The notes: generated from the sequence alone by a model not told the origin. Counted from the first letter of the stretch, positions 3,001 to 64,000 are shown. The stretch is 64,000 bases of DNA from Bispira polyomma (GCA_965649765.1 OZ287754.1:24800001-24864000), one strand, 5' to 3'. Numbers and translations are program-made.

Positions 3001-3382
3001 TTTATTTGATATCAGTATAGGGGGTAATAAATATTCGAATATAATCAACTATTTTGATGAATATAAAAAAAAACATTATTTATCCCCTATATCAACCGAT
3101 TGTAGCAAGCTTAAGGAATGGGAGTGGTTCAAACAAAGAGATAACATTATGTATACATTATTACTTTATAAAATACAACAGTGTCCTCGTTTTGCAGATG
3201 CACTACATCAAACAAAAAAATCTTATATATCCTATAATGTAACAGATAATTTATATTGGAATGTTGGATTAAGTAATAATCTGGTGAGGGTTATAAATAG
3301 GGACTCATACCCGGGTCAAAATCAAATGGGAGAGTTATTAATGAAACTTAGAGATAGCGTTTTAATGACTGCATCAGTATGA
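1..3382 (+). pseudogene. Protein-primed family B DNA polymerase (frameshifted, internal stop) with an inserted nuclease-like domain and a C-terminal NADAR-like extension
   Basis: ExoI VFDFES (~170), ExoII GFNSGKYDL, ExoIII YNNLDV, PolA DANSLY, PolB KLQANSAYG (~2155-2180), PolC DTDS. Split across ORFs 391, 671, 1760 and 2285. Confidence 0.92.
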
Positions 3383-27458: not shown

Positions 27459-27469
27459 AAGTTTAGATT

Positions 27470-35848: not shown

Positions 35849-36070
35849 ACTGTGACTAGCACGACCACTTCAGGGGACTGCTGTATCAGTTCACATCACA
35901 ACTTTAATTACCATTTTAAAAACACTTCTGGTTAATGCTGTTCATTGAACCTTATCAGCCATAACCAATCACCTATTGACCTCCCTCCTGAAATAGCTTA
36001 TACTGCCCCAACTTCTGGCACCATTTTGAAAGCAAGCTTCCACCAGTAAACACTGGAAAAAGTTAAAATT
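35849..36070 (+). repeat. Split direct repeat A1
   Basis: 222 bp; 2 mismatches by eye versus 47067-47288. Confidence 0.95.
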
Positions 36071-36206: not shown

Positions 36207-37319
36207 ATGGGAAGAACGAAGAAAACTCCCGGTAGTGCACCTCAAGCAACTAAGAAACCAGTGACCACCAGGAGGGCTGCTTCTGCAAAGATTAAAGACC
36301 CTGTGGTAAGGAACTTAAGAGACCCGTTAGCCGAGTCAGAGATTTCTATGGGGGGATCTAACGGATTGTCCGGGGTAATGGCCATATTGCAGCGTCTCTA
36401 GTTGGCAAACGCTGACATTAACAAAAGACTAGACCAAGTTGAACTGAAAGGGTCAGTTAATTCAACCCCTTTGACGTCCCCTGTAATACTAGTCAGGAAC
36501 AACACTATGCTAGATTTACGTCCTCACGTAGCGTTGCCATTACCCCCGAATCTGCGTCCAGGTCAGACTGCTCAGCAGCTGGGTCACTCAACTTCGTATA
36601 CTGGCCACCAACATCACGACTACCAATGGGACGGCATCATTCCCAGGCTTGATGTTCTGAAATCCATTCCGGACGTTAACGCCGCTGTGAACCAAAGGCT
36701 TGCTGCATATGACACCCAACTACGACAAGACTTATCCCAAGGTAAGACGTCCTTACGCCAAAAGTCCGGCTGTTACAACACCACAGACGTATATGGTGTG
36801 GAACCTCAGTCACGTTGGGCTAATGAGGGATGGATAGGGGGAACAGCCCGAAAGAGGCCAAGCTTCGATGATCTTACTATGCCCCAATGGGCAGCTGGGC
36901 AACTTGCCAACATCACCCAGGTTTCCGACCCTAATCTGATGAGGCAAATGCTGCACCAGAGGATATACTCGCTCCGGGATGCAGACGCGCTACCATGGAC
37001 GGCAGTGAGGGCAGCATGGGGCGGAAACATGCAGCAGATCGAAGAGGGGCGACTCGACTGGTCGAACTTGAACCGCCTTAGCACTTCTCAGTTGGCACTC
37101 GTCAACCCTCAGACCACGCACCAGGCTCAGAAGGCAAAAGTTTTGTGCAAATACTATAATAATGGTTCTTTCAATAATGAAAATGATCATGGCCAATATA
37201 GGCATATTTGTAATTACTGTTACCGTAACCTAAACAAAGAAAGTGCTCACCCTGAACATAAATGTAACAAAGCGAATGCTACTAAGAAGCCATCTGATGG
37301 CAACCAGTTAACAAAATAG
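36207..37319 (+). pseudogene. gag-like ORF1 of YR retrotransposon 1 (one internal stop at 36399-36401)
   Basis: Same frame across the stop. C-terminal CKYYNNG...HICNYC...HPEHKC zinc-finger region. Homologous to 56578-57942. Confidence 0.88.
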
Positions 37320-37687
37320 GTAGCTAGTCAACGACCAAGTGGATGAACAATTGAACATGTTGTAAATTGCAATAATTTTTTTTATTATATTATTTTTTTT
37401 TTCTCCAGTGCACAAGTACACGTTAATATATAGAAACGTTTAACACCACAACACACTAGTATCAAATGATTGAACAAATTTACATCAAGATATTCATGTT
37501 ACTGACTTCAAGAATTTACATCATATAACGTTTAACACCATAACACGCTAGTATCAATAATTGTATAACTTTACATCTAGATATTGATGTTACTGACTTT
37601 GGGAATTGACAATATTCTGTTATTTAATTTTACATACAATATTTCTTACATTTACCGCTCTAAAAAAAAAAAAAAAAAAAAAAATTT

Positions 37688-40600
37688 CTATATGATCCCT
37701 GTGACAGAAAAAAGAGGACTCCATTTCCCCCATATATTTGAAAAATTCAATGCTTTATCTGTGAGTTTTGCTAAATATTCTTCATCTATATAAATAGATT
37801 CTAATCGTTGCAACAGTGTACTTATATTACGCATATTGTCACTAATGGATGTATCACAAATAAATTTCTTGGTGACAATGATTATTGCATTTAATGGTTT
37901 TTGATTTTGATCAGTGAAAGGATATCCAAATATAATGTCCCAAGTACTAAAAATTACATTAACGTTGATCCTGTCTTTAATAACCCTTGAGAGCTGGGCC
38001 CATACATTTTTTGTACTTTCGCATTCAACAAACATATGCAAAATGGTTTCATCCCGTCCACATTTTCGACACAATGGGTCATCTTTTATCTGAAGTTTAT
38101 ATAAATAGCCTTTTGTTCCTAATATTCTGTAAAGTATTTTCATTTGGAACCATATTAAATTGTTACTCTTAATTGTTCTATGGCAGATGTTGAATATAGT
38201 GGACCATGTTTCATTATCAATAATTAATTTCATGTCTCTGTTCCATTTTAATTTCATTGAATGTTCATTTACATTATTTTTGTTGAATGTTCTGTAGAAA
38301 ACCCTAGCCCCTTGGTTTGCCTTAAATAGTATTTTCATAAAGAAGGGTATTGTCGGTCTTTGCATAATTGCATTTCCTTCTGAGTGTACTTTGCGGAGGA
38401 ATATAGTAACATTTTGTCTAACAGTTAAGTAATTTAATGGATCAATATGATTTATACCGAACTTCTGCTTTAGTCGGCTAAGATCAAGAACTTTTCCAGA
38501 TGTATCTATTACATCGGCCACCATATCAATGCCATTTTTATACCATGTAGACATAAACATAGTCTCTCTTGATATTCTTTCATTAAACCAAAGTGGACTT
38601 GCTAGTAAGTCAAGCCAATATTTCTCGGTTTGGTTTTGACAAATAATGTCCCAGGCATTAAAAACATCCACCCAGAATTTATTTGAGGTTTTTCTTATCA
38701 CATATTTCAGGTAAGTAGGTCCTAAAATAAGAAATTGCGTCAAATCTTCAGTTATGGTATTCTGGAACAGCTGCAGCCACGGTTTATTACAATCTCTTAC
38801 TGTGCGTCGTATCCATGTAGCTTTCGTAGCTTGCATAATATAATCTAAATTACACATCTTAAGTCCACCCAAGTAATAATCAAGCATTAATGTTTTTCTA
38901 TTTATTTTATCAGGTTTATTAGACCATATAAAGTTGAAACATAGGTTTCCTATTTCACTCAATATTGATTTGTCAGGATTTGGAAGACATATAAATATGT
39001 GGTTCAATTTAGAGAGTAAAAGACTCTTAATAACAGTAATTTTTCCTATGGGTGTCAGTGTTCTTCTGCTCCATCTATTTACTAGTTCTTTTACCTCTTT
39101 AAGTTTTTCTATATAATTTAGCTCGATGCACCTGTGTAAGTCTACCGAGAAATTAACTCCCAAAAGGGTAAACTGGCTGGTATCCCATTGAAATTTAATA
39201 TTTATTAATTTTTCTTTGCAATGCTTCTTTTTGCCAATCCATACAATTTGTGTTTTATCTTTGTTTACAATTAATCCAGATATATTGCCAAACACTTCCA
39301 AAGTATTAAGTGCTGCTCTTAATGAATCAGCCGAACCATCCAAGATTAAAGTGGTGTCGTCAGCAAATTGTGTTAGCTTAAATGTCATATTGTTACATTT
39401 AATGCCCTTTATGTCTGGGTTATTTGAAATTAATATAGCTAATATTTGTGCCGCAAGAATAAAAAGATAAGGGGAGATAGGATCTCCCTGTCTACACCCA
39501 CATTGAATGTTTATGAACTCAGAGAGAAAACCACATTGAATCACGCTTGCTTTGATGTCACTGTTAAATAGTCTGATCCAGTCTATAAAGGTTTCATTAA
39601 AATTTAGAAATCTAAGAACATCGTAGATGAAAGGCCATGTAATCGAATCAAAGGCCTTTTCGAAATCAATCATGACTAACATTCCCGGAATATGATGAAC
39701 TTCTGTGTAATGCATAATGTCATAGATGAGACGTGTTGATTCACCGATGTACCGACCTGGGACAAAACCGCATTGTGTGTTATCAATTAAATGATCCAGA
39801 AGAGGCTTAACTCGATTAGCTATTGCTGCAGAGGCCATCTTATACAATACAGTAAGCATAGACAACGGACGCCAATATTTAACAAGCTCACGTGGCTTTC
39901 CTTTCTTTGGTAGGCAAGTAATAACACACTGTCGCAGTGTAAGTGGTAATATTCCTTTTTTAAAGCTGCAATTTAAAGCCTGGGTGATAAAAACTCTTAA
40001 ATCCTTCCAGAATATCTTAAAAAACTCAGAGGGAAATCCATCAATACCGGGTGTTTTATTATTCTTCATTTGTTTTAAGGCCAGACCAATTTCATCTGTA
40101 GAAAGCAGGTCACCAAGATGTGATGTTTGTGCTTCAGTCAATTTCTTTACCTCATAATCCTTTAATAAATTATTCAAATCATAATCCTCCAATTTATCTT
40201 TGCATAGTTGAAAAAGTTTTTTATAATATTGTCTCAGTTCAGCCAAAATTTCATCTTGCTTTGTAATATAGGTATTATCTTTACGTTTTATTCTTTTTAT
40301 TGTTTTTTCAATGTAATTATGACGTTCCAAGGCTAAAAAGTACTTGCTAGGTTTTTCTCCTTCAGCAAGCCATTCAAAACATGACCTTACCTGCTGACCT
40401 TGCATTTTAATATATCTTAAATTTTCAAGTTCAGTTTTTTTAGATTCAATTGTATGAAGCTCATCTACTGGTTTATGTTCTTCTAACCAAGCTATCTCTG
40501 ATAAAAGTGTTCTCTCAAGGTCACAGTTTTTGCGCTTTTTACCAGTTGCATATTTGATGGATTAACCCCCTGATACGTAAAAGTAGTACCTCAATGAACA

Positions 40601-41513
40601 TGTCATAATCAATAGTCATGTTAATATCAGTAAAAGGCTGTTTATTTAGAAAATCAATATTGTAGACTGGAGCTGCATATCTAACATATTCCTCCCTTAT
40701 ACACTGTTTTATTCGACATAAAAATTGGTTTTCTTTCAGAAGACTTGTATTGAGTTTCCATATACCCTTACCTTTGGTGAAATTATTTATTACAAAGCTA
40801 AGTTCCAACATCGAGTGGTCTGATCTATATCCCGGTTTTATGTCTACATTACTAATAAGGTCTGTCATACCAGCTGAAAGCAAAAAATAGTCTAACCTAG
40901 CTTGTTTTGTGGGATTGCGTCGGCGCCATGTATATCTAATTTTGTTTGGGTAGCAATGCCTATAAATATCTAATAAATTATTTTCCTTCAAAATTTGTAG
41001 CACAGTTTGTCTCGAATTTGGATTGTTTACATTAACATAATTATAACTGTCCATATCAGGATTTAAGGTCAAGTTGAAATCACCACACAGTAAAATATAG
41101 TCTTGTTCATTAGTTGCTACTAAGGATCCAACATTTTTATAAAAATCTATATCATCTTTATTTGGACCATATATATTTATAAGCCTTAAGTTAATTCCGT
41201 TAATCTGAAAATCGATCAATATCAAGTTTCCACCTTTGTCTTTGTCTATTTTGCCAATCGTGTATTCAAAATTTGTGCTAAATAGTATTGCTACCCCTCT
41301 TGCATTACCCCTGTTGCCGTTCATAATACATTGGCCATCCCATATTTTTTTCACATCTGGTTCATTTATATCTCTCAAATGAGTATCCTGAAGACATACT
41401 ATATGAGATTTTTTGCCTTTAAAATAGTTCAATACATCAAATAATTTTTCTTTGTTATTTAAACCGCGACAATTTGCTGACAACACAGTTATGTTATTAT
41501 TTACTGCTGACAT
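37688..41513 (-). CDS. LINE ORF2: APE endonuclease, reverse transcriptase and zinc knuckle; single frameshift near 40565
   Basis: SANCRGL, LQDTH, NIYGPN, CGDFN, RLDYF, SDH; KTPGIDG, DFEKAFD, RQGDPISP, QFADD; CRKC...HMFVEC. Confidence 0.95.
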
Positions 41514-42572
41514 TTATTTTGATGCCTAATGATCGCTTGACAAAACAAACTTGTCAAGATGCGCCCATATAAATTCTCTACATAAAAGAGCAACCAGAAT
41601 GTGTACAAAAATCTGTCATCTAGCCTGTACATGTGTTTCAACAGAGCCATTATCTTTAAGATAATAAAAAGTTCAATCATATTGATACTGACACTTAAAT
41701 TACGGTAAAGAAAGTACACTGGAGTAATGCAATTATAACAAAAAAAAATATAAAAAGGAAAAAAAATAAGTACATAAAAAATGCTTGTCATATTTTGACA
41801 ACAAAAGAAAGACAAGCTAACAAATTTGGAAAAAAAAGAAAAGTAAAAAAAAAAAAAAAGTTAGGTTATTACTGGCTGAAGTCCGGTGTGTGGCTACTTA
41901 ATTAACCTGCAAATCAATTTGATTATAAAAGTTAAAAAATTATATAACAAAGGATAAACAAAGTGTTCCATTTGCTTTTAAACACTAGAATACAATGAAA
42001 TAAAAGGCTCCCTAATATTTACTTTTGTCCACCAGCATTTGTGTGGTAAACCATGCAATAGACTAGAGTTAGTGTAAATTCCCCCAATATGGGTGGAAGT
42101 TTTACCCTATACAAGAGTGACCATTTAACCCAATTTAGAACAAAAAGTGGAAATATAACTCTACACACAAGAATGTCCAAATGAAACAAACCTCTATATA
42201 AACACATAGCCAAATTTGTGTGGGGGGGTCATCTCAAGGGGACAAAATCTTCTATTGATAAAACAGAAAATTACATCACACACTTAGGAACAGAATAAAC
42301 ATATCATATATGTTTATCACATAATATTACCAACATATAGATTCAAATATATATACATATACTTATCAATTTAAATTCACCAATTTAAATGATTGTTTAT
42401 GATATTTATAAACAGTTTATAATTATTTCTAGCCTTACCTACTGCAGGTGAATTTTCAAATGAGGGCAACTGTAACTTTAGAACAAATAATTGTTTAGGT
42501 TTTTATAAACTGTTTATGAATATTTCTAGTTTAACTACTGCTGGTAAATTATCAAGTGAAGGTACTTTATCT

Positions 42573-43544
42573 TTAGGACAATGCATGTCTCACACGTTCC
42601 AATGTCTTACCAGCTACATTTTTGCCTGGCCATTTGTCTGGATTGAATATGTCTCTGCTAATCAGTGGTAATCCAACCCCCCAGAATTTGTCAAACATAT
42701 TTGCCTCAACTAGAGTATGCTTGCCTGTGGACAACAAGAAGGACTTTAACTGCTCATTCTGATGAAATTTAGCAAACATTCCTTCATACATATAGTCCGG
42801 AGCCACCTGGAACCATTCTGCCTTTTTGAAACCTCTTACAGATTTGGCCATCTGTTTAATCGTAACAGGGTCTTGGGCTTGAAGGATGCCTTCCGCTGTT
42901 TCCTTATCTTTAAAGTGAGTGGCTTTTTTGTACATCAAGTACTGCTCTGTTGATGTGAATACAATGTCCTCTGCATTAAACTTCGCGGGATGGTGGTTAC
43001 TTAACGGGGAGTTTCTAGTATAAAATGCTTGCACTCCACCATGCCTGGGTGTGAACACATTCTGAGGCAAAAGCAATGGGTTATCAATTGTGTCAATATT
43101 GTCACTAGTGTAAATCTTACCGCCTAGAATGATTCTGTCAACATTGAATCTTGGCTTTAAATCTGGATGTAGCTGAAGTGCTTTGAAGAAAATCGGAAGC
43201 AGCAATTTACGTCTCTCAACAACTTCTCTAGGAAAGTCCTCTTGCACAGTAACACTCATCGTGCGTAGATTCTTTTTTGCTTTCATTATCTTTTCCTTAT
43301 TGTGCCATTGCCAGACCTTTACAATCACTGGTCTAGATCTTCCTTCCATTCTTGGGCCAATAAAATGAGCCTCTGCGATATCCTGCTCTGTAACAGCAAT
43401 TCCCACTTTGGCAAGAATTTCTATAACAACATTGACAAGGTTTTGGGGAGTTGGGCATTGAATACCCAACATCCTAATATTATTTTTTCTTGAGTATGTC
43501 TCTTGCCTTAAATGTTGTTCCTTTAGACTTTTATTTTCTCTTTT
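42573..43544 (-). CDS. LINE ORF1 (end of coiled coil, RRM, CTD) fused to a C-terminal NADAR (YbiA/DUF1768) domain
   Basis: Frame is open to the truncation point (..ETYSRKNNIRMLGI, RPVIVK, VQEDFP..V.ERRK). C-terminal FY...PLSNH, FTSTEQY.M..KA..F.D, AKF.QN..L...LLSTG...LVEA...DKFWGVG, GKN..GK.LE.VR. Confidence 0.92.
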   Translation of the reverse strand, partial: KRENKSLKEQHLRQETYSRKNNIRMLGIQCPTPQNLVNVVIEILAKVGIAVTEQDIAEAHFIGPRMEGRSRPVIVKVWQWHNKEKIMKAKKNLRTMSVTVQEDFPREVVERRKLLLPIFFKALQLHPDLKPRFNVDRIILGGKIYTSDNIDTIDNPLLLPQNVFTPRHGGVQAFYTRNSPLSNHHPAKFNAEDIVFTSTEQYLMYKKATHFKDKETAEGILQAQDPVTIKQMAKSVRGFKKAEWFQVAPDYMYEGMFAKFHQNEQLKSFLLSTGKHTLVEANMFDKFWGVGLPLISRDIFNPDKWPGKNVAGKTLERVRHALS

Positions 43545-46078
43545 TAAATTGCAATAATAGCAGTGGCATAGTTAGTAAATCTAATGTTAGAACTAATAGC
43601 TATTCTGGAAGTAAAGTAGAAAACAAAACTAATGTCAATAACTCTGAGTATCATGTAATTGCTAGTAAAGAAGAAAAAATACAATGTGAAAGTACAGTGA
43701 AATTCTGGGAAAGTACAACTCAGAAAAGTCCAGTTCACGAATATATACACCAGGTTGGGCATTATGAAGTTCATAATGCACTAATATATAGTGATATTTC
43801 TGAAATTGAATGTAACATTTCTACTATAAACTGTATATTTGTGTGTCCACAAGATAATCGTGACCACCAGGTGGTATACTTGCACTTTCCAAAACATAAC
43901 AGCTGGTCAGGTTTCTGCTATGGGATAAAAAGTACCACAAGTGTTAGATATCAGCATTTAGCCAATTTACCAGGCTTTCAGTTAATGGTTACTGACAAAC
44001 AAAAGGTCAATATGTCTGTGCAAACTTGTTATCATGTATATCAGTATAATAATACTGACCGAGAACATGCTGGTCTCACCTTTCGAAACTATCACAGAGA
44101 CCTTACCAGCTACCAGAAAGATAATCACGATTATGTGCAATACATGTATAATATTACTGACATGCTTATTGAAAAGGATAATGTGATAATTTATGTTAAT
44201 AAAGATGAAAAGGTTGGAAAGTCCAAGGTGAGTAGCAAACGAGCGCACACTCCGCCTGTGGATCATGTCGACGGGTTGTTCAGCCCCGACACGGGACACA
44301 GTTCTTCTTCCAAACTAAGTGACATTAAGGACATTACAGACTCTTCCAAAAGTCTAGGCTTAATTAAACTTTCTAGAAAAACCTTCAATTTTGCTGGACC
44401 TGACAGGGATTCGGTTCAGATAGATAGTATAAGTAAAATGACTGATATAGCAAACATTATTAGAAGTACAGGGGTGTCCAACTATAAGCAGGTACGCATT
44501 CCAATTAAATCTCAGTTGAACATTAAGGCCTGGGAGGATATCACCCAGAACCACCCTGACAAAATAATTACACAATATTTAAAGTTTGGCTTTCCACTGT
44601 CATTCAGTGACTCCAAACAACTTAACTCACAAGATGTTACTAACCACCACTCTGCTTTGCAATTTCCTAAGGCTATTGACGAATATCTGAATAAAGAAAA
44701 GAGTAAGGGCGCCATGTTGGGTCCTGTGGCCAACATCCCAGATTCTCAATTCTACTGCTCACCCTTACTTACTAGGCCCAAAAATGGCAGTAAGAGACGA
44801 GTCATTCTTAACCTCTCTTATCCGGTAGGTAATTCAGTTAATGACAACGTTAGTCGGGGAATTTATGATGACACGGAATTCTCACTCAAATTCCCTAGTA
44901 TTGACAATATAACTGCAAGTATTCGGGACACTGATAACCCACTTATGTTTAAGGTGGACATGGCCCGCGCGTTCAGAAATTTAAGAGTCGATCCGGTGGA
45001 CGCCTTAAAGCTGGGTATCAAACATAACGACCAGTATTACGTTGACGCTGCCGTGGTGTTTGGCTGTGCCTACGGCAGTGCTATCTTTCAGCGATGTTCG
45101 GATATCATAGCAGATCAGATGAAAACATTGGGTTATAACCTTCATTGCTACATCGACGACTATGCTTGCATATGTCCGGAATCTCAGGCAAAACAATGTT
45201 TTGACCACCTCTGCAAATTACTGAATTACGTAGGTCTTTCAATGAATCCTGATAAGGTTTGTGCTCCCTCTACTAAGGTCACATTTGTGGGTATTGACAT
45301 TGACATTACTAAGGGAACAATCAGTATAACTAAAGAAAAAATTGCTGAAATATTTCGAACATGTGTCGATACACGGAAAATATCCTGGATATCTCGTACA
45401 AATTTTCAGTGTGTGCTAGGAAAATTGCTTTACATACACAAATGTGTAAAACCTGCCCGTTACTTTATTAATCGTGTCCTTTCAGTTTTTAGGGCTTCCC
45501 CTGGAGCCAAGCGCTTCAAAATTACTAAAAACCTTAAAAGTGATTTAGACTGGTTCATTAATTTTCTTTTTAATTACAACGGGGTCACATATATAAATCC
45601 TCTCCCAATTAAGGCAAACAAAGAAATGTATTTACCTGCATGCCTCACAGGTTTGGGGGGCATTTGGAATGACCAAGTTTACCACACACCTATCTATAAT
45701 GTTTACCAATATGACCTCCATATTACACAATTAGAAATGGTCAATATTGTAGTGGCTTTGAAAGTTTGGGGAGAAAATTGGGCTCACCAAAGGGTGACAG
45801 TCCATTGTGACAACATGGCCGTGGTCTTGGTCGTCCAGACTGGCAAAACTAGAGATCCATACTTAGCTGCTTGTATTCGCAACATTTGGTTGCTTACTTC
45901 AACACACGACATTACTTTAGAAATAGTACACATTAAGGGTAAAAAGAACATATTGGCGGATGCTTTGTCCAGAATCTATTCGGACAATCCTCCTAAACAA
46001 AGTATGATGCAGTTACTTAATCAGTATTAACGAAAACCAGTTCCAATTAGTCATTTTAATTTAAACCTTAACATATAA
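43545..46078 (+). pseudogene. RT-RNase H of YR retrotransposon 1 with a long N-terminal extension
   Basis: FKVDMARAFR, YIDD; RNase H LEMVN, HCDN, ADALSR. First RNase H Asp appears replaced (YLPAC versus HLDAC in element 2). Premature TAA at 46028-46030. Confidence 0.9.
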
Positions 46079-46084
46079 TTTCAG

Positions 46085-47039
46085 GTGCTACATCATCATC
46101 TGACACCTTAGGGAGGGCAGCCATTGACAGAATACATGCTGCTCGCAGACCTTCTACCACAGCAGCATACTCCAGCCAATTCAGAACATACTTGTCGTTT
46201 TTACAGTATGTCCAAATACAGGACATCACCGTCCACTCCGTACTAGCGTTTCTAGAGTATCTGACACAGAACAACATATCTCCAAAAGTGGTGAACAATT
46301 GTTTAGCAGGCATAAAGTTCATGTGTTTGAAGTATAATCTTAATCATACAGTGCTCCAACATAATTCCATTGCTCTGTTCACACGTAGCCTCACTCACAG
46401 TTCTTCTTTTAGACCAGCCCCTAAAGGAGTATTTGATGTCAAACAATTACTGTCAATTTCTGAAAATTGTGAAATACTTAGTGATCCCATACTCTACAGG
46501 GCCATATTTCTGGTAGCTTTCTATGGCTTCCTGCGCATGTTGAACATTGCCCCTCACTCCAGAAGGCAATTTGACCCTTCAAGGCACTTGCTGTGCCAAG
46601 ATTTGATATTTGGCCCTCCTGGGCTTCACATAATCATCAAGTGGGCCAAAAACATGCAGGACCGTTCATACTCGCACATGGTCCAATTACCAAAAATAAA
46701 AATACCACTCCTCTGCCCAGTATGGGCTCTACAGAACCTACTACAATCCAGGAAAATCTCAGATCACTCCCCATCTTTGTAACTGCATCTCCCCCGTACC
46801 ACCCCATAGTGGATTCACACGTTAAGGCAGCTTTGAGAACAGTATTACAACACATAGGTATAAATCATACCATACATGGCTTTCATACGTTCCGTAGATC
46901 CAGAGCTACCCTTGCTTTTAACAACAATATATCACTTCAAAACATCATGGCACACGGGCTGTGGCGAAGCTCTGCTGTATGGACACACCTACAAACAACT
47001 TCCCAAGCTGCCTCAATAATTCCTTCCACACTTTACTGA
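46085..47039 (+). pseudogene. Tyrosine recombinase of element 1 (frameshift near 46775, 3' end clipped)
   Basis: FYGFLR, KWAKN, HTFRRS, HGLWRS; catalytic Tyr appears replaced by His (VWTHL). Frame opens right after tttcag. Confidence 0.9.
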
Positions 47040-47288
47040 CTTTACTTACCATCACACACTAAGGGAACTGTGACTAGCACGACCACTTCAGGGGACTGCT
47101 GTATCAGTTCACATCACAACTTTAATTACCCTTTTAAAAACACTTCTGGTTAATGCTGTTCATTGAACCTTATCAGCCATAACCAATCACCTATTGACCT
47201 CCCTCCTGAAATAGCTTATGCTGCCCCAACTTCTGGCACCATTTTGAAAGCAAGCTTCCACCAGTAAACACTGGAAAAAGTTAAAATT
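47037..47288 (+). repeat. Internal B1-A2 junction repeats
   Basis: B1 47037-47070 matches 47987-48020 (1 mismatch); A2 47067-47288 matches A1. Confidence 0.9.
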
Positions 47289-47986
47289 CCCTCAACCTTC
47301 CGCTTATTCTCCTCCTATAAAAATATACTTTACTTATACAACTCGCGTGGCACCACGTGCTGGTTGGAACCCGGATCCGTGTGGTGCTGGTTCCCAGCTT
47401 ACATCTACCCCCTGGTGTGGGCTACCGGGGATTAAAGCTCTACAGCTGGGAACCTTCACTGCTAGGCGATTAGATGCCGTAGGACCCGGGTTCTGGCGTT
47501 GGTGGTGTTTTCGTTGGAGAAACAATGATTAATTAGTTAGAATCAATTTGTTACATTACTTGTCTGTAAAACTTTATATGCACAATCAGTGCTAGATACA
47601 TTAACAAATCGTAAGGCTCACTGTCAATGAACATTGGGTACCTCAGACGTGGTTCAAGGGATCATTATGATAGTTGCAAGAAAGGTGCATAATGCACTAA
47701 TATACATTGTTAGAACAGGCTTATATGTATGCTTATGATTCTTTTATTGTTTTTAATTGTAACTTTTAGTGACATACTTTTTGGTTAATGGGTAGTCCTA
47801 CATGTATGTTAACTATAGTATTGTGTTTGTATGGTATTACTTACCTATTGTTTGTGCATGTCTGCTTCGGTGGGCTTATTATCGACTATATTTTAAAATT
47901 TTAAATATATCTCATAAACCTGTACATAGATACTAACATGTACAGAAAATAAATCTCCAAACCTTAAAATTCTTGTTATTATTTTA

Positions 47987-48020
47987 TGACTTTACTTACC
48001 ATCATACACTAAGGGAACTG
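47987..48020 (+). repeat. Terminal repeat B2 (part still matching B1)
   Basis: tgactttacttaccatcatacactaagggaactg. Confidence 0.85.
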
Positions 48021-49949: not shown

Positions 49950-52670
49950 CTGCGTTAATGCTAATGTCTCTTGCTCTTTCAGTTGACCTTTTTAATATTC
50001 TCACGGGAAAGGGCAGTATTGGGTCTAATTGTTAAAAGTTTCTGTTATTGTTGTTCTGAGTAAAAAAATGCTTACCACCCCCTTGTACAACAGTCAAAAA
50101 CAAAACATGATGGGATATTACACATTTTGTTTATTTTATTGAATAGAAGTACTTCTCCCTCATTATCTACTATGTCAGCTATAAAGAGTATTCTAGCCTG
50201 ATGCCATTTGAGCATGCAAAGATCATTTTTACTTATATTGTTCTGATACCATAAAAGAGATAAACAAAATTCTTCAGTTGTTTTAGGTTTAACATTATTG
50301 ACATCCATTATCCAAGCATTAAGAACAGATTTCCAAAAATCATTACTAGTCCTAGATATCAATTTTGATACCATAGAGAGCCTTTGCTTGTCAAGTGTTT
50401 AGTGTTGGTAATGACTCTTTGAAATAGTTGTGTCCGGGGTGGTTGGTAAGCTTGGAGTAATCTTCTTATCCATGTAGTTTTGATGGCATGAATAAACTTT
50501 TCAAGACTGAGCATATTTAGCCCACCCTTAGCATATATCTTTTATTTTATCAGGCTTGTTCTCCCAAATATATGAGTTAAACGATTTTTTGGGTTTTGGT
50601 GATGTAGCTTAGCAGAAGTGTGGGAAGACTTCTAAATAGATGATTAAGTTTTGTTGGTATAACCAGTGTTTTTAAGACAGTGGTTTTACCAATAGGAGTG
50701 ATATGCCTGTTTGACCAGGAGCTCAAAAGCTTGTTAATTTCAACTAATACATGATCAAAAATTATCTCTACTATTTTATTGAGATTGATAATAAATTTCA
50801 ATCCCAAGAATAAATTTGGTGTCTTTCCAGTCTAACTTTCATTTATTTTTAATTTCTCATTTAAATTTTTTTCCTACCTGTCCACATTAAATTTTATTTT
50901 TCTCGAGTTTATAATAAGACCAGATAAGACCAGTGCCCTTTTTACCATTAAATCTTGTGACTTAGATCCCATCCCAGCAGTTATACTGAGTCAATGTCTT
51001 GACATTCTTGTCACACCCATAACAAATATATTAAATTTTTCTCTTCGGGATGGTGTTTTTCCCACCTGTTTCAAGACGGCAAACGTAACTCCCTTGATTA
51101 AAAAACAAGGGCTTGATAAAAACCAGCTCAAAAACTACAGACCGGTGTCAAACCTCAGCTTCGTCTCAAAAGTCATCGAGAAAGCTGTAGCTAAACAAAT
51201 TTCTGACCACCTAAATAGACAAAACATTCAGTCTGCTTATAGAAAATTTCACTCTACAGAAAGTGCCCTTTTTTCAATTAGCAATGATATCAATCTTGCA
51301 CTGGACCGCAACGACACAGTGGCCCTCACCCTTCTAGATCTCTCAGCTGCTTTCGACACTATTGATCATGTCCTGCTCTGCGACACTCTCAAGCAGTGGT
51401 TCGGTATAAATGGCAGTGTCCTTAAATGGATCAGATCCTACCTTACTCTTAGAGCACAAAGAATTAAACTAGATGATTACCTATCATCTTCCATAGAACT
51501 TCCATATGGAGTACCCCAGGGATCCGTCCTTGGTCCTCTACTTTTCACCCTTTATACACATCCTCTCAGCACTGTCATCAATAAACACAATATAAAGCAC
51601 CACATGTATGCAGACGACACTCAAGTCTATCTCTCCATCAAACCACAAAATGCATATACTAACATAGACCTACTTGCAGACTGTCTGTCTGATGTCCAGG
51701 CGTGGATGAACTACTCCAAACTAAAGCTTAACCCGGACAAAACAGAATTCATCCTCATAGGAAACAAGAAAAACAGTGAACTCCTAAAATCTTTGTTTCC
51801 CATCTCCCTGCTGGGAAAAGACATACTACCTTCCGAAAATGCTAAAAACCTGGGTGTCACTTTTGATTCAGCTTTTTCGTTTGATACGCATGTTGCCAAC
51901 ATCTGTCGCTCCTGCTATTACCACATACGTGACATCAAAAGAATCAGAAACCACTTGTCCATGGACACAGCGATAACTGTGGCAAATGCCCTTGTGAGTA
52001 GCCGCCTCGACTACTGCAATTCTCTCTTGTACGAAGCAAACAAGTCAAACATTAAAAAGCTCCAGTCCATCCAAAACTACCTATGTAGGGTCATTTTTCG
52101 CCTGGGTTGTCGCACAGATGTCACTCCTTACCTCAAAAAATTACACTGGTTGCCCATTGAATCTCGAATTTTGTTTAAGATTCACGTTACCACTTTTAAG
52201 GCTGTAGTCACTCAACAGCCACCCTACCTTGCCTCCCTTCTTTCCTTCAGTAACCGTAAGAGAGGAAACAGACTCTCTGTCACTTCGGTCAGACCAATCA
52301 GAAAGGCGGGTTTCAGAGCATTCTCCACTGCAGCTCCACGGTTATGGAACAGTCTCCCAGTCGACCTCAGATCAGTTGATACGCTTATCGGTTTTAGGAA
52401 AAAGCTTAAAACCTATCTTTTTAATCTTGCCTACCCACCTTAGCTTTCCTCGTGCACGCTCCCACTTCCTTCCTTACGACTTTGCAATTTCCACGGACTT
52501 AATGATTGGACTAATGATTCTGCTGTTGTGCTTTAGAAGATGCCTAGCATCAATAAAGCGCGTTAAAAATCCATAATAATAATAATTGTATTATATGTTT
52601 CCAAAATGTTTAGTGCAGTTTCAAGGGATGCTAAAGAACCGTCCAGAAATAAATTGCATATTGACTGATT
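49950..52670 (-). mobile_element. Decayed L1-clade LINE fragment split by the L2 insertion
   Basis: FLDGSLASLETALNILETY (52590-52650) continues as SGLIIN (~50910), ITPIGKTTVLKTL and NDFWKSVLNAW; homologous to the 37688 ORF2. Confidence 0.85.
50930..52586 (+). mobile_element. 5'-truncated L2/CR1-clade LINE with an intact RT segment (ORF 51094-52443)
   Basis: [47 protein letters not shown]; AATAAA followed by an (AAT)n tail. Confidence 0.93.
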
Positions 52671-55600: not shown

Positions 55601-56577
55601 GGCTACATATATTTATTCTAAAATTTATTCTATTTTTTAACGATGTATAACATTGCTCATATCATATTATAATGTAGACATGACTAGAAAGGAGCAACAA
55701 GTAGTATGATTTTATTAGCATAATGTTTAATTCAGGAAATGAATAAAAGATAAATAGTGTTTTTATTACGTGATATTATGAAACTATAAATTTGAGGTCA
55801 TTAAGCCAACACTGACTATGAACGGTACTTTTCTCATCCCACATGTTCACAAACAATTTTTTTCAATAATAACCATAGAATTAGGAAAGCAGAGGGAAAT
55901 ATTACTTTTCATAACCACCCATAAAGTAAGAATTTGGACAAAAATGATATACCCCAGAGATACCGTTACCAATCTAGTAAAGCATAAAAGGCCAAAAAGC
56001 CTACAACAATGTTTAACCCCAAGAAGAATTTACAAGGGATACATACAAGGGCGGCAATGTAACGAGACAGAATCATCTTGAAAAAGCTTAAAGTTAGATA
56101 GAATGTTTCTATAAATGACATATGAATGATATGTCATTTTTACCAGCAAGCACACTTTAGTGGGCTGATGTGTTAGTTCTAAAACACATCTTTAAAACTA
56201 TTCTTGTTATACACTCAGTCCATCATAAACTGGACACTGACCAATCAGCATCCAACACACCTCTGCACAACACGACTACTATAGGGGTCTGTTAGTTCAG
56301 TCCAACATAAGATTAATTCAACCTTAAACACCATAGGTTATACCTACTTTTTATTTTCTTGTTTATTGGGTAACAACCAATTAAATTCAAACCCATCCAC
56401 CCATGACCGCTCCCCTCTACTTTCCACCATTATTAACTCGAGACTTGAACGAGCAACAACATATATTGCAAAAACGACTGGAATGTACATAGAATTTTAT
56501 TTTTGTTTGATTTTAGTTTGTTTTTACATTATACATTCAGTCTGACAATATATATACACTTTATATGAACTAAGAAG

Positions 56578-57942
56578 ATGGGGAAGACGGCGAAGAAGCC
56601 TCCTGTTACGCGGTCTACTACTACGAAGGTGAGGGGGAAGAAAACTAAGGGTGTTCCGACAGACGACGGTTCACAGGTAACTGATATCATAGCCTCAGAA
56701 GTACATGCCCAGCTCACCGCTCTAGCCTCTAGAGCTTCGGATCTTTCTTCAGATGCACTATCATCGATCATAACTACGTCCGGAGCTACTTATGTTCAGG
56801 CCACACCTCCACGTGCGCCTTTGAGTACAAGCGTTGTACCAGAAGTCGGGCTCTCTCTACCATTTAATTTCCAAACGCTTGGTAAAGATTCGGCTTATGG
56901 CGGGATCACACCACCACGTTGCCAGACTTTACACACAGATCAACAACTCCCTTCGGGTAGCGGGTCGACTTCAGACAACTCTTCACAAATGCTAGCCATT
57001 TTAAAGCGACTTGAGACTTCAAACGCCGAACTCGGCAAACGTATCGAACGGGTCGAGACTGCTCAGACTCAACAAACACTTCTCAATAGGCAGGTAGCAG
57101 ACGTCGCCGCAACTCAGCTCTTCACGGCGAATCCCAGTACTTCAGCAGTGGCTTCGGCAGGAGCGAACCCTGGCTTGGTTCACCAACTTCCGGTTCAACA
57201 CGAATTCGGCCGTGATGGAGTGGTTCCACAACTAGATACACTGAGGGCGATTCCAGCCATCCAAGCAGCTATAGCCAGACAGTTGGCTGGGTATGATGCG
57301 AATATACAGCGGGACATTTTGCAAGGTAAGCCAGTAAAACAAAAATCTGGTCGTTACAACAGTGCTGATATTTCAACAGCAGACCCCAAGTTTAGATGGC
57401 CGAATGAGGGGTGGGTCGGAGCGAATGCAAAACGTAAACCTACATTTGATGAACTTTCTTTGGCCCAATGGGCAGCAGGGCAAGTAAACAACGCTCTCTT
57501 AGTGACAGACTCGGTCGTGATGAAAGGTATGCTTCAACAGATAGTACATACACTCAGGGACGCGGCCGCTCTCCCCTGGCCGGTCGTCCGCACGGCATAC
57601 GGACACAGTATGCAAGAGGTAGAGGAAGGACGTCTCACGTGGGACAATCAAACGCAGTGGGCGCTAAATAGACTTAGCGCATCACAGACGGCATTAGTAA
57701 GCAGCAATACTAACAATGTCACTGGGGATTCGAGCAAGGGGAAACAAAGTAATGAATTCAAGACGATCTGTAAATTGTATAATAATGGGAAGTGTTCTTA
57801 TAAAGCTGACCATGCAAATTACCGTCACATTTGTTGGCATTGTTCAAAGACATTAGGCAAGGATGCTGTGCATCCAGAGTTTAAATGCTTCAAATTTCAA
57901 TCCAATTTGAACAAGAATCCAGAACTTAGTACGAATCGCTAG
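56578..57942 (+). CDS. gag-like ORF1 of element 2
   Basis: 454 aa; basic N-terminus, coiled coil, C-terminal CKLYNNGKC...H...HICWHC...HPEFKC. Confidence 0.9.
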   Translation: MGKTAKKPPVTRSTTTKVRGKKTKGVPTDDGSQVTDIIASEVHAQLTALASRASDLSSDALSSIITTSGATYVQATPPRAPLSTSVVPEVGLSLPFNFQTLGKDSAYGGITPPRCQTLHTDQQLPSGSGSTSDNSSQMLAILKRLETSNAELGKRIERVETAQTQQTLLNRQVADVAATQLFTANPSTSAVASAGANPGLVHQLPVQHEFGRDGVVPQLDTLRAIPAIQAAIARQLAGYDANIQRDILQGKPVKQKSGRYNSADISTADPKFRWPNEGWVGANAKRKPTFDELSLAQWAAGQVNNALLVTDSVVMKGMLQQIVHTLRDAAALPWPVVRTAYGHSMQEVEEGRLTWDNQTQWALNRLSASQTALVSSNTNNVTGDSSKGKQSNEFKTICKLYNNGKCSYKADHANYRHICWHCSKTLGKDAVHPEFKCFKFQSNLNKNPELSTNR

Positions 57943-60711
57943 GGACAATACCGTCAGCCAATCAGCGGAAATAGCAAGTTTAAAGGTAAGCAGAGTAATG
58001 ATATTAACCAATTTATTAACATTGAGAATAATGTTCCAAAACTCAATAAATGTAGGTATACAAAATTAAATTCTAACAATGCCAATAACGGTGATGTTCA
58101 AGGTATAAACAACTCTGAATGTTTACATTATGAGAACATTGGGAAAAATAAAAATGTCAGCATTCAGGCAACCGAGGAGTTTGAATGGGGGCATTATGAT
58201 AATTATGATATAGAATATAAAGATGTCATAGACACTGTTGAGAAGAATGGTGTAATAGATATAATTCAATGTGATCAGAATATTACAGACAATCTGAATA
58301 TGGGAAAACCAAATGGCATGAATTGTAATGATAAAAAGGTGATTATAAATGAACTTTGGCAGAATGTTGTTAGCCAACTTGACATGGTTAGTAAAGTAAA
58401 AATTTCAGTCACGAATTGGTATGCAATTTCTACATACGGGGGTGTTATGGCACCTGTAGTGCATATGTCTAGTGTAAGTAACGGCTTTTATTGTATATGT
58501 CATTCTGATACTGATAATTGTATGATCTATTCACCTACTGCCATAACCTTTACAGATAAATTGCAGATCATAGATTGTTATGAGACTGAGATTTGGTTGA
58601 ATCACAGTATAAGCAATGATGTAACACCATATAGTATGGTCATGCATTCTCACACTGATAAGCAACAGTCGGTCAATGACCATTACAATTATACTAAAGA
58701 TCTGCAATGCTGGGAGCGTTATGGCTATGATTATACTTCATACATTGAAAATATTATTGACACATTAATGTTGCAATCTGAGGTGTCAGATTATAGTTCA
58801 GATTTAGTAAATGATGATTCAATAAACTTAACTGATAGTACTACCAGGCAACAGCAGGTGAGTAATAACGACGTACCAGAAAAAGACGCATCCCTCTTCT
58901 TCGAAAATTGTGACAGTACATATATACATGAACTTAAAGAAGTTACCAGTTCTGGTGACATTGACATTAATGATCCAGATAAGAAAAAAGGCTTTCTTGC
59001 ACTTTCTAATACAAAATTTGAGTTCAATGGCCCTGATAGACAACCAGTGAACATTGATTCCATTGATGAGATGATTAGAATAGGCAAGGTAATTAGTGAC
59101 ACTCAACTTCCTAATTACAAACAAGCTAGATTTCCTATTGGTTCGGGGTTGAACCCAACTGCTTGGGAAGACATATTTCATGATTACCCTGATCAATTGA
59201 TAATACAATACATTAAGTTTGGCTTTCCTCTAAGTCTTACAAATCATAATAAGTTAAAGAACACAGAAATACACAATCATTTCTCTGCTTTACAATATAC
59301 CAAAGAAGTTGGTCAATACCTGGAGAAAGAAAAGAGTAAGGGAGCTATGTTGGGCCCAGTCAAAGCAATAAATTCCTCTCAACTTCATTGTTCTCCATTG
59401 TTAACTCGTCCCAAAGATATTGATAAAAGACGAATAATCTTGAATCTCTCATATCCTGATGGAAATTCGTTGAATGACAATGTTGATAAAATACACTTTG
59501 ACGGTGTAAAATTTAAATTAAAATTTCCTACTATTGATGACATCACACAGGCAATTATTAATACTGAAGAACCAACTCTATTCAAAATTGATATTTCGCG
59601 CGCGTTTCGTAACCTCAGAGTCGACCCAGCTGAGGCCATTAAGTTGGGCATACTCTGGAATGACAACTTGTACCTTGATCCGGCAATTCCCTTCGGCTGG
59701 GTACATGGAAGCGGGGCATTTCAGCGTTGTTCAGACACAGTCGCTTACTTTATGAGAAAATCCGGTTTTAACTTATTATGCTACATCGATGATTATATAT
59801 GTATAGTACCTAAATCCAAGGCTCAGCAGGGTTTTGAAATTCTTATAGATCTCTTGACAAAACTAGGTCTACCCATGAATAGTGAAAAACTCACTACTCC
59901 CACCTGTAACATTACATGTCTAGGTATAGACATAGACGTGCAGGAAGGTACTATTTCTATAACTAAGGAAAAAATTACTCAAATTTGGAACCTTTGTTTA
60001 GAAATATATAACAAAAAATTCATTTCCAAAAATAAATTTCAATCCCTTTTAGGCAGTTTACTTTACATACATAAATGTGTCAAACCAGCGCGTACTTTTA
60101 TAAATAGACTGTTAATGGCGTTTAGAGGTAATACAGACAAACGTATAAAGATCGATACTGCTATGAAAAACGATTTACAATGGTTTCTAACATTTCTCCC
60201 AGTTTATAATGGCATCACATATATTCAGCCTACCATCATTCAACACGCGAACGAACTGCATCTTGACGCTTGCCTTACTGGCTGCGGAGGAATCTGGGGT
60301 GAACAGATATACGCAACCCCTATTCATAACCTTTACAACAGAGATCTCAACATAGCACATTTAGAAATGTTGAATATCATTATTGCAGTAAGAATATGGG
60401 CTAATGACTGGGCCCACAGCAAACTTAATATTCATTGTGACAATATGGCTGTAGTATTGGTTGTCGGATCACAGAAAACCAGAGACGACTTTTTGGCACT
60501 CTGCTTAAGAAATTTATGGCTGATAGCAGCAACATTCGACATAACACTCACCATCGAACACATCCCTGGTAAGCAAAACGTTATAGCTGACGCTCTTTCA
60601 AGGATTTACTCAGCTCATCCACCTCCTTTGGAAATGTTAAATACACTCAATAACAAATTCCAGTGGAAACAAGTCACACTGGAACACTTTAATCTCAATT
60701 TATTTGTTTAA
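57943..60711 (+). CDS. RT-RNase H of element 2, in frame with gag after a single TAG (first ATG at 58300)
   Basis: No stop codon from 57943 to 58299. FKIDISRAFR, PFG, YIDD; RNase H HLDAC, LEMLN, HCDN, ADALSR. Confidence 0.92.
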   Translation, partial: GQYRQPISGNSKFKGKQSNDINQFINIENNVPKLNKCRYTKLNSNNANNGDVQGINNSECLHYENIGKNKNVSIQATEEFEWGHYDNYDIEYKDVIDTVEKNGVIDIIQCDQNITDNLNMGKPNGMNCNDKKVIINELWQNVVSQLDMVSKVKISVTNWYAISTYGGVMAPVVHMSSVSNGFYCICHSDTDNCMIYSPTAITFTDKLQIIDCYETEIWLNHSISNDVTPYSMVMHSHTDKQQSVNDHYNYTKDLQCWERYGYDYTSYIENIIDTLMLQSEVSDYSSDLVNDDSINLTDSTTRQQQVSNNDVPEKDASLFFENCDSTYIHELKEVTSSGDIDINDPDKKKGFLALSNTKFEFNGPDRQPVNIDSIDEMIRIGKVISDTQLPNYKQARFPIGSGLNPTAWEDIFHDYPDQLIIQYIKFGFPLSLTNHNKLKNTEIHNHFSALQYTKEVGQYLEKEKSKGAMLGPVKAINSSQLHCSPLLTRPKDIDKRRIILNLSYPDGNSLNDNVDKIHFDGVKFKLKFPTIDDITQAIINTEEPTLFKIDISRAFRNLRVDPAEAIKLGILWNDNLYLDPAIPFGWVHGSGAFQRCSDTVAYFMRKSGFNLLCYIDDYICIVPKSKAQQGFEILIDLLTKLGLPMNSEKLTTPTCNITCLGIDIDVQEGTISITKEKITQIWNLCLEIYNKKFISKNKFQSLLGSLLYIHKCVKPARTFINRLLMAFRGNTDKRIKIDTAMKNDLQWFLTFLPVYNGITYIQPTIIQHANELHLDACLTGCGGIWGEQIYATPIHNLYNRDLNIAHLEMLNIIIAVRIWANDWAHSKLNIHCDNMAVVLVVGSQKTRDDFLALCLRNLWLIAATFDITLTIEHIPGKQNVIADALSRIYSAHPPPLEMLNTLNNKFQWKQVTLEHFNLNLFV

Positions 60712-60717
60712 TTGTAG

Positions 60718-61694
60718 GTTCTACCAACATCAGCAGCAGCTTTATACCCTCTGCTTGGGCCAGGATTGATACAGCCATCAGGCCAAAGACTGCTAGCACA
60801 TATAAAGCACAATTTAATACTTTCCTGTCCTTTAATCACTTTGTGGGCATTTCCGAGGTAACAGTTCATTCAGTGTTAGTATTTCTAGAATATCTGGTTC
60901 AGGCAGGGTTATCACCTGGTGCAATAAACAACTATGTAGCAGCTATTAAATACATGACACAAAAATTCCAACTAGATACCACTCCTTTATCTCATAAGTA
61001 CATACAGCTTTTCTTGAGAAGTTTGACTCATAATTCAACTTTCAAGCCTAAACATAAAGGCATTTTCAGCATACAACAGTTAGCCAGCATATCTAAAGCA
61101 TGTGACATTTTACACGATCCACCACTATTTAGGGCCATTTTTCTGCTGGCATTTTTTGCCTTCTTAAGGCTTTCTAATATAGCATCACATTCTAGGGCTT
61201 CATTTGATCCTACAAGACAATTCCTCAGACAGGATCTATTGTTTATTCCACCTGGAGCCCATATTACATTAAAATGGGCAAAAAATCTACAGAATAGATC
61301 TGATACACACAACATACAGATTCCTCAATTGCAGAACTTGGTGTCATGTCCAGTCCTGGCTTTGAGGAAACTACTAGCTTCCAGGGATTTACCTCCTCAT
61401 GCACCTTTATTTGCATCAGCTACTCCACCTTTTTACCCAATAGTGGATTCTCACGTGAGGGCAGCCCTTCAAAAAATATTACAACACATTGGGATAGAAT
61501 ACAAATTTCATGGATTTCACACATTCAGGCGATCAGGCGCCACATACGCATTCAATAATAATGTTTCACTACAGAATATTATGTCACACGGCTTATGGAG
61601 ATCCTCAGCAGTGTGGACTTATCTACAACAAACTTCAGAAGCAGCTTCTGTAGTTCCCCTCACGTTCGCTTCCACCATTCCTTCTTTCTCTTAG
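60718..61694 (+). CDS. Tyrosine recombinase of element 2 (no initiating ATG; probable spliced exon)
   Basis: FAFLRLSN, KWAKN, HTFRRSGAT, HGLWRS, VWTY: complete catalytic set. Frame opens after ttgtag at 60717. Confidence 0.92.
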
Positions 61695-62099
61695 TTGGGC
61701 TTGGGTGTCAAAATTTTAAAGTAAACTTTTTAAAAATTTTTACTTTTATTTCATTATCTGTATTTGTATATATATATACTAACGTGTAAAATAAAATCCT
61801 CAAACAAGAGTTTTACTGTCTTGTCAAATTTACAACTTTCCATCCCCTTTAAGAATTATTTGGGAAAGAATTATAACTTATTAGCTTCACATCTTATAGA
61901 ACTGGACTGACTTATTTAGCATGTGCGTCCCCTCACATACAATCTGCCATTTTAACCCCAGCAAGACAAGGGTAAACATGTGAATAGCAAATGTGTTGAA
62001 AAAAAAATTCTTTTAAAATTTTATGAACTTGTTCAGCATTTAATATTGTTTTTAGTATATGTTTATTTTTTAATATTGTATACGCTCGTTCATAACACT

Positions 62100-64000
62100 A
62101 CCATTATAGGACGCACCAAGAAGACACCATCGAGTGTTCCACAAAAGAATAAGACTGCCATCATCAAGAATCAACGAGAGGTGCAGGATCTGGCTATTCG
62201 GATGCGGTAGTACAAAACCTACAAGTACCCCTATCCGAGCCTAAGGCTAGTACCAATAGCAACCTGGACAGTACAATACTTGTCATTCTCCAGCATCTTG
62301 AAAAGGCCAACATAGAAATAAATAGGTGGCTAGACCGGTTAGAGGCCAGAGGGACCCATAACTCAACACCGCTTGCTTGACTGAGTATTCCTCAAAACGA
62401 TTCACTAGCAGATCTGTGTCGCCAGAATGTCCACATCTAGACAGCACATGTTCCCATTAACCTGACGGTTCAACCTGTCATGAATCAACTGACAGCAACG
62501 GTAGCTGGTCAAGACTATCAACAGGATGGCATTTTTCCATGGGTGGATGTCCTACGCAACATTTCCAAAGTCACCGAGGCCGTCAACTCATGACTAGCAG
62601 CATTTGACACTCACTATACACAGGACCTTGCTCAAGGTAAGACAACCACGAGGCAAAAGTCAGGTAGATACAATTCTACAGATGTGTGCTTAGCAGAACC
62701 CCAGTTTAGATGGCCTAATGAGGGTTAGATCGGGGGTACAGCCTGTAAGAAAACCTAATTTGACGAGCTCTCTTTATCACAGTGGGCAGCTGGCCATTAA
62801 TATAATCCATGTTAAACCAGATGGTCTACGCTTTCAGAGACTTGCACGCTTTGTCCTGGCCACAGGTTCAAGCTGCATGGGCCCATAATATGCAGGAGAT
62901 AGAGAAAGGAAGACTCGACTGGTCCAATGCTACACAACTGAATCACCTTAGCTTATCACAACTGGCCCTGGTATAAGGCCATTTCACGCACACCTCTGCG
63001 AATCAACAGAAGGCCGAGGTTATTTGTAAATATTTCAACAGTGGGTCGTGTAGTCACGACAGTGATCATAGTCAATACAAGCATCATTGCTTATATTGTT
63101 TTAAGGTATTAAACAAGGAAAACAGTCACCCTGAGTTTAAATTCTGAAAGCCAACACTTCAAACACTAAGTCTGGCATCTAGTATGGTGGTCGGCGACCT
63201 TGTACAGCTTTTGACAATGATAAATTTAGTAGAGTTAACAGAGACGTAAATGTAAAAGTATGTAAATTTATTGAAAATAGAAGTAGCATATTTATTGCAG
63301 TTAACTTAGACAATAGTACAGAGACAAACAATAGTCAAGGAAGTATTGAATCAAATGTGATTGCTAATGTTGACTCACCTGTTATGGGAGTTGACATGGA
63401 GCATGCTAGCATAATTGCAGAGCAGGATAAGCACAAAAGTCATAACGTATACAAAAATGGGGGTCATTATGATTCTTACTAATCAGATTTGTATTACAAA
63501 AATGTCAAAAATGCACCCATGTATTTTTGTACATGGAACTTGGCCTGCAAAATGTTTCAATATGTTAACTGCTGGGGTAACCAAGCGGTAGTTTAATAAT
63601 ATGTGGCAGATTACATGGAAATTTCAGGTTTTTACTGTGAGAGTTACAACTCTTTTTCCAAGAACTCCACTTATACTCCACTAGGGGAAATCCCCACTTT
63701 TCCCTACGGGGTTTCTTATACACTTGATACTAAAGTCAATATTGACTACAACTCGGTAAGAATTGAATGTTTTAACAAAAGTAAAACTATGTATGCAAAA
63801 TTGACCCAAGATAATCACAGCGGGGACCTGGAATGCCATAACTTATTTGGTCTTGATTATACAACATACATGCAGCATGTTATTGACTGCATTATTGAAT
63901 GATATTATTTCAGTATTAAGAAATTAAAAATACCTGTGAAGGCAAGCAAATTTGGAAGTGTAAGTGTCTTCGAACGTGTATCTGTCAACATAAATGAGTC
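62100..64000 (+). mobile_element. Decayed tyrosine-recombinase retrotransposon 3 (gag and start of pol), running off the window
   Basis: GRTKKTPSS, QDLAQGK..RQKSGRYNST, FRWPNEG, CKYFNSGSC..HC.YC..HPEF with stops. TAG at ~63180 is followed by ~100 open codons. Confidence 0.88.

Follow-up and report, generated by a model that had tools for sequence, protein, structure and literature searches.

Readthrough at the gag-pol border of murine leukaemia virus (MuLV) requires a purine-rich spacer and a pseudoknot (PMC2194720). In Tca2, a long terminal repeat (LTR) retrotransposon of Candida albicans with the layout gag-UGA-pol, a gag-pol transcript gives rise to pol, and the local sequence gives no portable signal; an in-frame stop also lies between pol and env in SIRE1 (PMC2194720). 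Among described members of the Ngaro group and the DIRS order, open reading frames (ORFs) frequently overlap (PMC6681497, PMC5633606, PMC7192593), and in Xenopus Ngaro all of them do (bioRxiv 2021.08.05.455354). For described Ngaro elements the literature searched gave no account of how pol or the tyrosine recombinase (YR) is expressed, and passages of PMC2632668 and PMC9341512 add nothing for the DIRS order. Here we describe element 2, a tyrosine-recombinase retrotransposon of Ngaro-like structure, in a 64,000-nt stretch of DNA from Bispira polyomma (GCA_965649765.1 OZ287754.1:24800001-24864000; hereafter the window). Its gag and pol lie in one frame across a single TAG, an arrangement that suggests readthrough of the gag stop.

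The window is AT-rich, eukaryotic DNA crowded with transposable elements. Element 2 comprises the following parts:

56578-57942, plus strand: gag-like ORF of 454 aa; its Cys/His zinc-finger region, at the C-terminus, stops 17 residues ahead of the stop codon
57940-57942, plus strand: single in-frame TAG at the gag/pol border (context TAG GGA CAA), the candidate readthrough codon
57943-58299, plus strand: ATG-free and stop-free stretch of 119 codons in the pol frame, with coding periodicity by chi-square
58408-58812, plus strand: moderately conserved pol linker domain, modelled as a small beta sheet and a helical hairpin
58960-60711, plus strand: reverse transcriptase (RT; YIDD) and RNase H; the frame ends 35 residues past the last RNase H motif, with no space for a methyltransferase domain
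60718-61694, plus strand: YR coding part (PF00589, E 3.6e-6; SAM-like domain), with no start Met ahead of the conserved region

A Pfam search gave no match for the gag-like ORF. The pol frame (57943-60711) has 922 open codons in the frame of gag, with its first Met at codon 120 (58300), and the YR frame is open over 60693-61694. Like Ngaro elements, element 2 and its relatives carry gag, RT/RNase H and YR in this order, without a methyltransferase domain and, in element 1 of the same window, with split direct repeats; they differ from them in having gag and pol in frame across one stop, followed by a long N-terminal pol linker.

The codons between the TAG and the first Met have the character of coding sequence. 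Between 57943 and 58299 the pol frame holds no stop, compared with 8 and 24 in the other two frames, while dinucleotide shuffles hold 9.6 on average and none of 2000 was stop-free. The 119 codons follow the G-first, A-second, T-third pattern of the remaining pol (p 2e-8); two non-coding flanking stretches, used as controls, gave p 0.17 and 0.78. The coordinates fully confirm an earlier sequence-only reading, which had placed gag and RT in one frame split only by TAG 57940-57942, with 119 ATG-free open codons up to ATG 58300. Related elements include element 1 in the same window and the distant loci described below, and the signature recurs among them. All six intact junctions tested run without a stop from the gag stop to RT, where 10-30 would be expected in each, and triplet periodicity over the first 80 codons past the stop reaches p<0.05 in 6 of 7 elements. 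In every element that can be read, the stop-free, periodic stretch reaches from RT back to the gag stop exactly, from which we infer that ribosomes cross that stop; together with the constant frame and the avoidance of TAA described below, this pattern strongly supports bypass of the in-frame gag stop.

Pol might instead be translated from its own AUG (58300 in element 2), through reinitiation or from a shorter transcript begun at an internal promoter. The sequence around ATG 58300 is good for a start, the first Met lies 23 codons or fewer from the stop in four distant loci (L004, L005, L006 and L010), and a weak promoter is present at the Tca2 junction (PMC2194720). However, 14 out-of-frame ATGs lie between the element 2 stop and 58300, the first Met of the pol frame ranges from codon 5 to codon 120 across elements, and no Met is conserved. 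Moreover, the open ATG-free run of 98-119 codons in element 2, L001 and L008 (shuffle P ≤0.001) would be unconstrained if pol began downstream of it. An own start would also leave the gag-pol frame free, as the pol-YR frame is, and would not explain the choice of codon at the gag stop, both of which are described next. We consider this route unlikely.

A scan of metagenome contigs yielded 13 loci (L001-L013); a gag-pattern scan of metagenome contigs found no relatives, and neither did scans of viral contigs and genome contigs. The junction was counted in L001, L004, L005, L006, L008 and L010. Six further loci (L002, L003, L009, L011, L012 and L013) end short of it, and L007, in which a gag without its C-terminal half is followed by TGA and an in-frame pol, was not counted. 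All six distant loci with a gag end show gag, one stop, and pol in the same frame, so that together with elements 1 and 2 every readable junction (8/8) is in frame with a stop at the gag end. Over these junctions the frame is constant; a frame that varies among intact copies is what the sequence-only reading had named as refuting its proposal. These loci are far from the window elements (37-42% identity in RT/RNase H) and from one another (40-73%), and they span the deepest split of a tree built from family members only. Their linkers from gag stop to RT range from 84 to 549 codons; very long pol linkers (~480-550 codons), with several Cys-x-x-Cys motifs, occur in L005 (3010-4657) and L007 (732-2169). 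As an internal control we compared pol with YR, which share a frame in 5 of 13 elements only, in line with the free YR frame of fungal Ngaro (PMC3783388).

The codon at the gag stop is restricted but not fixed. Both window elements use TAG and all six distant loci TGA, with no TAA (n=8); the stops of pol and YR are TAA in 17 cases, TAG in 6 and TGA in none (n=23). TAA avoidance at the gag stop gives a Fisher p of 4e-4, with kinship among elements ignored. The expectation of an invariant UAG across the family is thus contradicted, since 6/6 distant relatives carry UGA. A-to-I editing that turns UAG or UGA into a Trp codon in part of the RNA would account for every feature of the layout, also for the choice of codon: UAG and UGA each need one edit, whereas UAA, which is not used, needs two. 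However, no duplex around the stop is more stable than in shuffles, and predictions pair the stop bases inconsistently; we regard editing as improbable.

Could the stop be a sense codon in the hosts, or the decayed remnant of a formerly fused gag-pol ORF? Many copies in the window are indeed decayed. However, the stop stands at the same position in eight elements from two deep clades, as two different codons, and no fused gag-pol ORF was found among the best 150 gag or the best 120 pol matches in protein collections. No further in-frame TAG or TGA occurs in seven pol frames, and because all 80 Trp codons in these frames are TGG, TGA is not a sense codon in the hosts, which rules out an alternative genetic code of that kind. 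The shared position, the lack of fused ORFs and the clean pol frames largely refute both ideas, which we hold to be very improbable.

Homologues in protein collections give a similar picture of the two ORFs. The gag profile matched 3917 clusters; the 150 top matches are all 692 aa or shorter, and a terminal Cys motif present in 135 is followed by the protein end a median of 14 residues later (within 40 in 128). Longer gag forms were looked for without result, although this counts as weak evidence. For pol we used the best 120 of 266 relatives, of which the longest has 968 aa, with lengths up to 1614 aa searched. In 89 of the 91 homologues among them that bear the RNase H motif, pol ends 35 aa or fewer past it. 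The pol N-terminus could be aligned in 102 relatives, and ahead of RT this alignment has no column of conserved Met. Of the 69 homologues that keep the linker motif, 60 stay open upstream past the position of the element 2 ATG, although their starts are gene-caller choices and show an open frame rather than true starts.

The recombinase likewise has no conserved Met in its conserved part, and two sites in element 2 suggest how it may be expressed:

57326-57331, plus strand: putative splice donor CAAG/GTAAG, phase 1, six codons ahead of the conserved gag KSG motif
60700-60717, plus strand: putative splice acceptor, T-rich tract and TTGTAG/G, phase 1, six nt past the pol stop (score 13.4)

Joining the two is in frame and gives a 574-aa Gag-YR. 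The donor is at the same place in gag in element 1 (36742), element 3 (a decayed copy in the window) and distant loci. It lies 6-14 codons ahead of the KSG motif in five of six gags; L001 has a weaker GGTAGT there. A T-rich phase-1 acceptor stands ~20-25 codons ahead of the conserved YR start in all 13 elements that have this start, where sites were chosen by eye and then, for five, scored leave-one-out. The counterpart of the pair in element 1 runs from 36742 to 46084. None of the 15 contig joints listed, of 47, matches the predicted intron. From these sites we conclude that YR is probably made as a spliced fusion with the N-terminal half of Gag.

The same donor might serve pol, if it were spliced to a phase-1 acceptor in the linker so that the stop is skipped. 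The element does have splicing signals elsewhere, element 2 has phase-1 AGs at 58288 (score 5.6) and 58555 (score 6.9), and in three of six linkers (L001, L005 and L006) the top-scoring AG has phase 1. However, the YR acceptor of element 2 scores much higher than its linker AGs, the acceptors available in L004 and L008 are all poor (1.4 and 2.4), and acceptor positions are unconserved, from 24 to 321 codons ahead of RT. Such splicing would leave 115-228 open, periodic codons between stop and acceptor unexplained, and accounts neither for the fixed frame nor for TAA avoidance. Nor is the stop itself a plausible acceptor: the AG of the TAG scores -1.8, and TGA cannot serve. Splicing into the linker has, in our view, little chance of being how pol is made. 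The sequence-only reading had treated the gag donor only as a rival to be dismissed, since splicing from it into the AG of the stop would be out of frame; the likely partner of the donor is the acceptor ahead of the recombinase.

We return to readthrough of the gag stop, and to what weighs against it. No sequence is common to the junctions after the stop, where the +4 base is G, G, C, C, G, A, T and T. In local folding, one of 32 windows had z below -2 (in L005), and the region downstream of the element 2 stop gave z +0.1 to +0.7; no long-range duplex exceeded shuffled controls. Comparison of element 2 with high-depth contigs over 57943-58299, in which 28 of the listed differences were examined, gave six differences there, of which five are non-synonymous, one is synonymous and none is a stop, and thus no evidence of purifying selection on residues. 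ATG 58300, as noted, has a favourable context, with A at -3 and G at +4. Tca2 has the same layout, and 300 nt around its stop gave no readthrough in yeast (PMC2194720). Finally, these elements have no known protease (PMC3783388), so that a Gag-Pol fusion would stay uncleaved or require a host enzyme.

The search for a signal was also negative in Rfam, where five sources gave no match, and there is no strong first stem of a pseudoknot, bearing in mind that the folding tool does not predict pseudoknots as such. The stem or pseudoknot that had been looked for 3′ of the TAG is thus not apparent, with neither a stem nor long-range pairing above chance. In elements 1 and 2, as in MuLV, the UAG at the gag-pol border has a G after it. 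However, the spacer and pseudoknot and the protease that follow the stop in MuLV are not seen here, so that the gammaretrovirus-type signal of UAG, purine-rich spacer and stem or pseudoknot is absent. The likeness to gammaretroviruses consequently holds for the layout but not for the signal, and the distant stops are UGA. With Tca2 the family shares the in-frame gag/pol stop (PMC2194720), but in that LTR element of the integrase type a pseudoknot is predicted, whereas the present elements encode YR, use both UAG and UGA, and have no predicted structure. The signal seems to amount to hardly more than a weak stop codon, or else to reside in sequence that we did not recognise.

Weighing these points, we put the probability that low-level stop readthrough yields Gag-Pol at about 0.7, and regard the gag-pol stop layout as real, conserved and probably functional. 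Programmed readthrough as first proposed keeps its core, a single conserved in-frame stop with a coding signature downstream, and loses the invariant UAG and the stem, and two of its four examples in the window are weaker. Coding constraint in 57943-58299 stands in so far as the stretch is stop-free and periodic; the substitutions give it no support.

In the model that we favour, three proteins would come from one transcription unit, all begun at the gag AUG. On full-length RNA most ribosomes would terminate at the gag end, and a minority would decode the single UAG (in the sister clade, UGA) as an amino acid by means of a near-cognate tRNA. The latter would pass through the long, variable linker into RT/RNase H and produce a Gag-Pol of ~1377 aa, which would be packed together with Gag. 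On spliced RNA, joining the mid-gag phase-1 donor to the phase-1 acceptor ahead of the recombinase would give the fusion of the N-terminal half of Gag to YR.

Contigs resembling element 2 provide some information on its other copies. Two high-depth X2 contig records (three runs, one study) contain the TAG unchanged, their 7 and 8 differences all lying elsewhere; under the 31-letter rule neither spans the TAG, and the sample behind the window may itself be among the runs. Contigs near-identical to element 2 (56100-62100) have a depth of ~300, compared with 12-15 for other X1/X2 contigs, where depth is not copy number, and they carry an extra in-frame 15-nt stretch at 58479. The element 2 family looks young and multi-copy.

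Three other copies in the window had been cited as having the same layout. Their features, with those of the repeats and insertion in element 1, are:

37317-37319, plus strand: element 1 gag TAG, in register with pol across the LINE (long interspersed nuclear element) insertion; extra TGA at 37344
37363-43558, minus strand: LINE-type insertion interrupting element 1 pol, with a 14-bp target-site duplication (37363-37376 and 43545-43558)
35844-36070, plus strand: element 1 terminal repeat A1, 99% identical to 47062-47288
47032-48012, plus strand: element 1 3′ repeats, namely B1 (47032-47061), A2 (47062-47288), a spacer and B2 (47983-48012)
63180-63182, plus strand: TAG of element 3, in frame with a pol-linker match and with 99 open codons after it; the last readable gag frame is shifted
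27578-27580, minus strand: gag-frame stop (TAG TGG) of a gag remnant with no pol match left; uninformative

In element 1, whose RT is 55% identical to that of element 2, the first copy of the target-site duplication ends 57 nt, or 19 codons, past the gag TAG. Register and coordinates confirm that, once the LINE and one duplication copy are removed, its pol is in frame with the gag TAG, bar the TGA at 37344. Element 3 keeps part of the layout, a TAG in frame with the pol linker and the open codons beyond it, but continuity from gag to pol requires a frameshift. The minus-strand remnant is no example: the TAG GAA at 27564 (given earlier as ~27562) belongs to a different frame from gag, the gag-frame stop is the TAG TGG at 27580-27578, and no pol remains.

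Several features of the family's structure bear on its placement. YR replaces a DDE integrase alongside RT/RNase H and lies downstream on the same strand, no methyltransferase domain follows RNase H, and split direct repeats are arranged A1-ORFs-B1-A2-B2 in element 1, with direct repeats also in L001 and L005. Element 2 has no second A copy within the window; contig joints from 61909 to 56266 suggest one in other copies. By the structural definition (PMC4157794, PMC8547959) the family matches Ngaro, the tree comprising family members only; structure alone may mislead in such classification (PMC4157794). A DIRS1-like identity is rejected, as inverted terminal repeats with an internal complementary region and a methyltransferase domain were not found. 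PAT-like elements share the split direct repeats, but the methyltransferase domain is absent here; its loss is known in a PAT lineage (PMC4157794), so a PAT origin is conceivable. Element 1 departs further from Ngaro in that ~700 bp (47289-47982) separate its A2 from its B2, an unusual order; this segment partly resembles the 3′ untranslated part of element 2.

The linker domain of element 2 (58408-58812) is ~120 aa long and conserved in the near clade, with VY..GFY..C..P.G.L followed by Y.NY..D..Y..Y...IID. No family or fold match was found for it, Atlas matches all being <0.9; its model (pLDDT 77, pTM 0.43) gave a best structural Z of 4.0, to generic helices, with the beta part barely covered.

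Overall, nested elements cluster in this window. In the LINE that interrupts element 1, the endonuclease and RT ORFs (37688-41513, minus strand) stand in different frames around 40550, and this LINE extends ~300 nt beyond its poly(A) tract up to the target-site duplication. NADAR-domain ORFs (PF08719) occur at 42573-43571 (minus strand, E 4e-42), in the ORF1 region of this LINE, and at 2219-3382 (plus strand, E 6e-12). A DDE_Tnp_4 (Harbinger-type) fragment and a further RT fragment lie at 29300-29821 and 50836-52443, and a 199-bp tandem repeat (26978-27472) directly follows the minus-strand gag remnant.

The recoding proposed here seems to be of a known kind, that of MuLV and Tca2, in a group where it is apparently undescribed. 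In our literature search neither readthrough nor Gag-YR splicing was found reported for the DIRS order, and an earlier remark in the founding Ngaro paper, the main review, Repbase notes or supplements is quite possible. More tentatively, and with somewhat less than even confidence, we suggest that a large branch of tyrosine-recombinase retrotransposons, represented by thousands of gag clusters, may combine a retrovirus-like Gag, a readthrough Gag-Pol and a spliced Gag-recombinase. Its switching between UAG and UGA, with no local hairpin or known motif, would then point to a signal that went unrecognised or to a factor that the elements themselves encode, such as RT or the linker domain with an action on termination. 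For DIRS-order elements, whose RT and recombinase have no conserved starts of their own, the model gives a complete expression scheme with exact coordinates. If it is true, gag-pol readthrough reaches a third retroelement group beyond retroviruses and LTR elements, and the family offers a large natural set of readthrough sites without a known signal. Annotation would change as well, since gene callers start pol at an arbitrary ATG and overlook Gag-YR.

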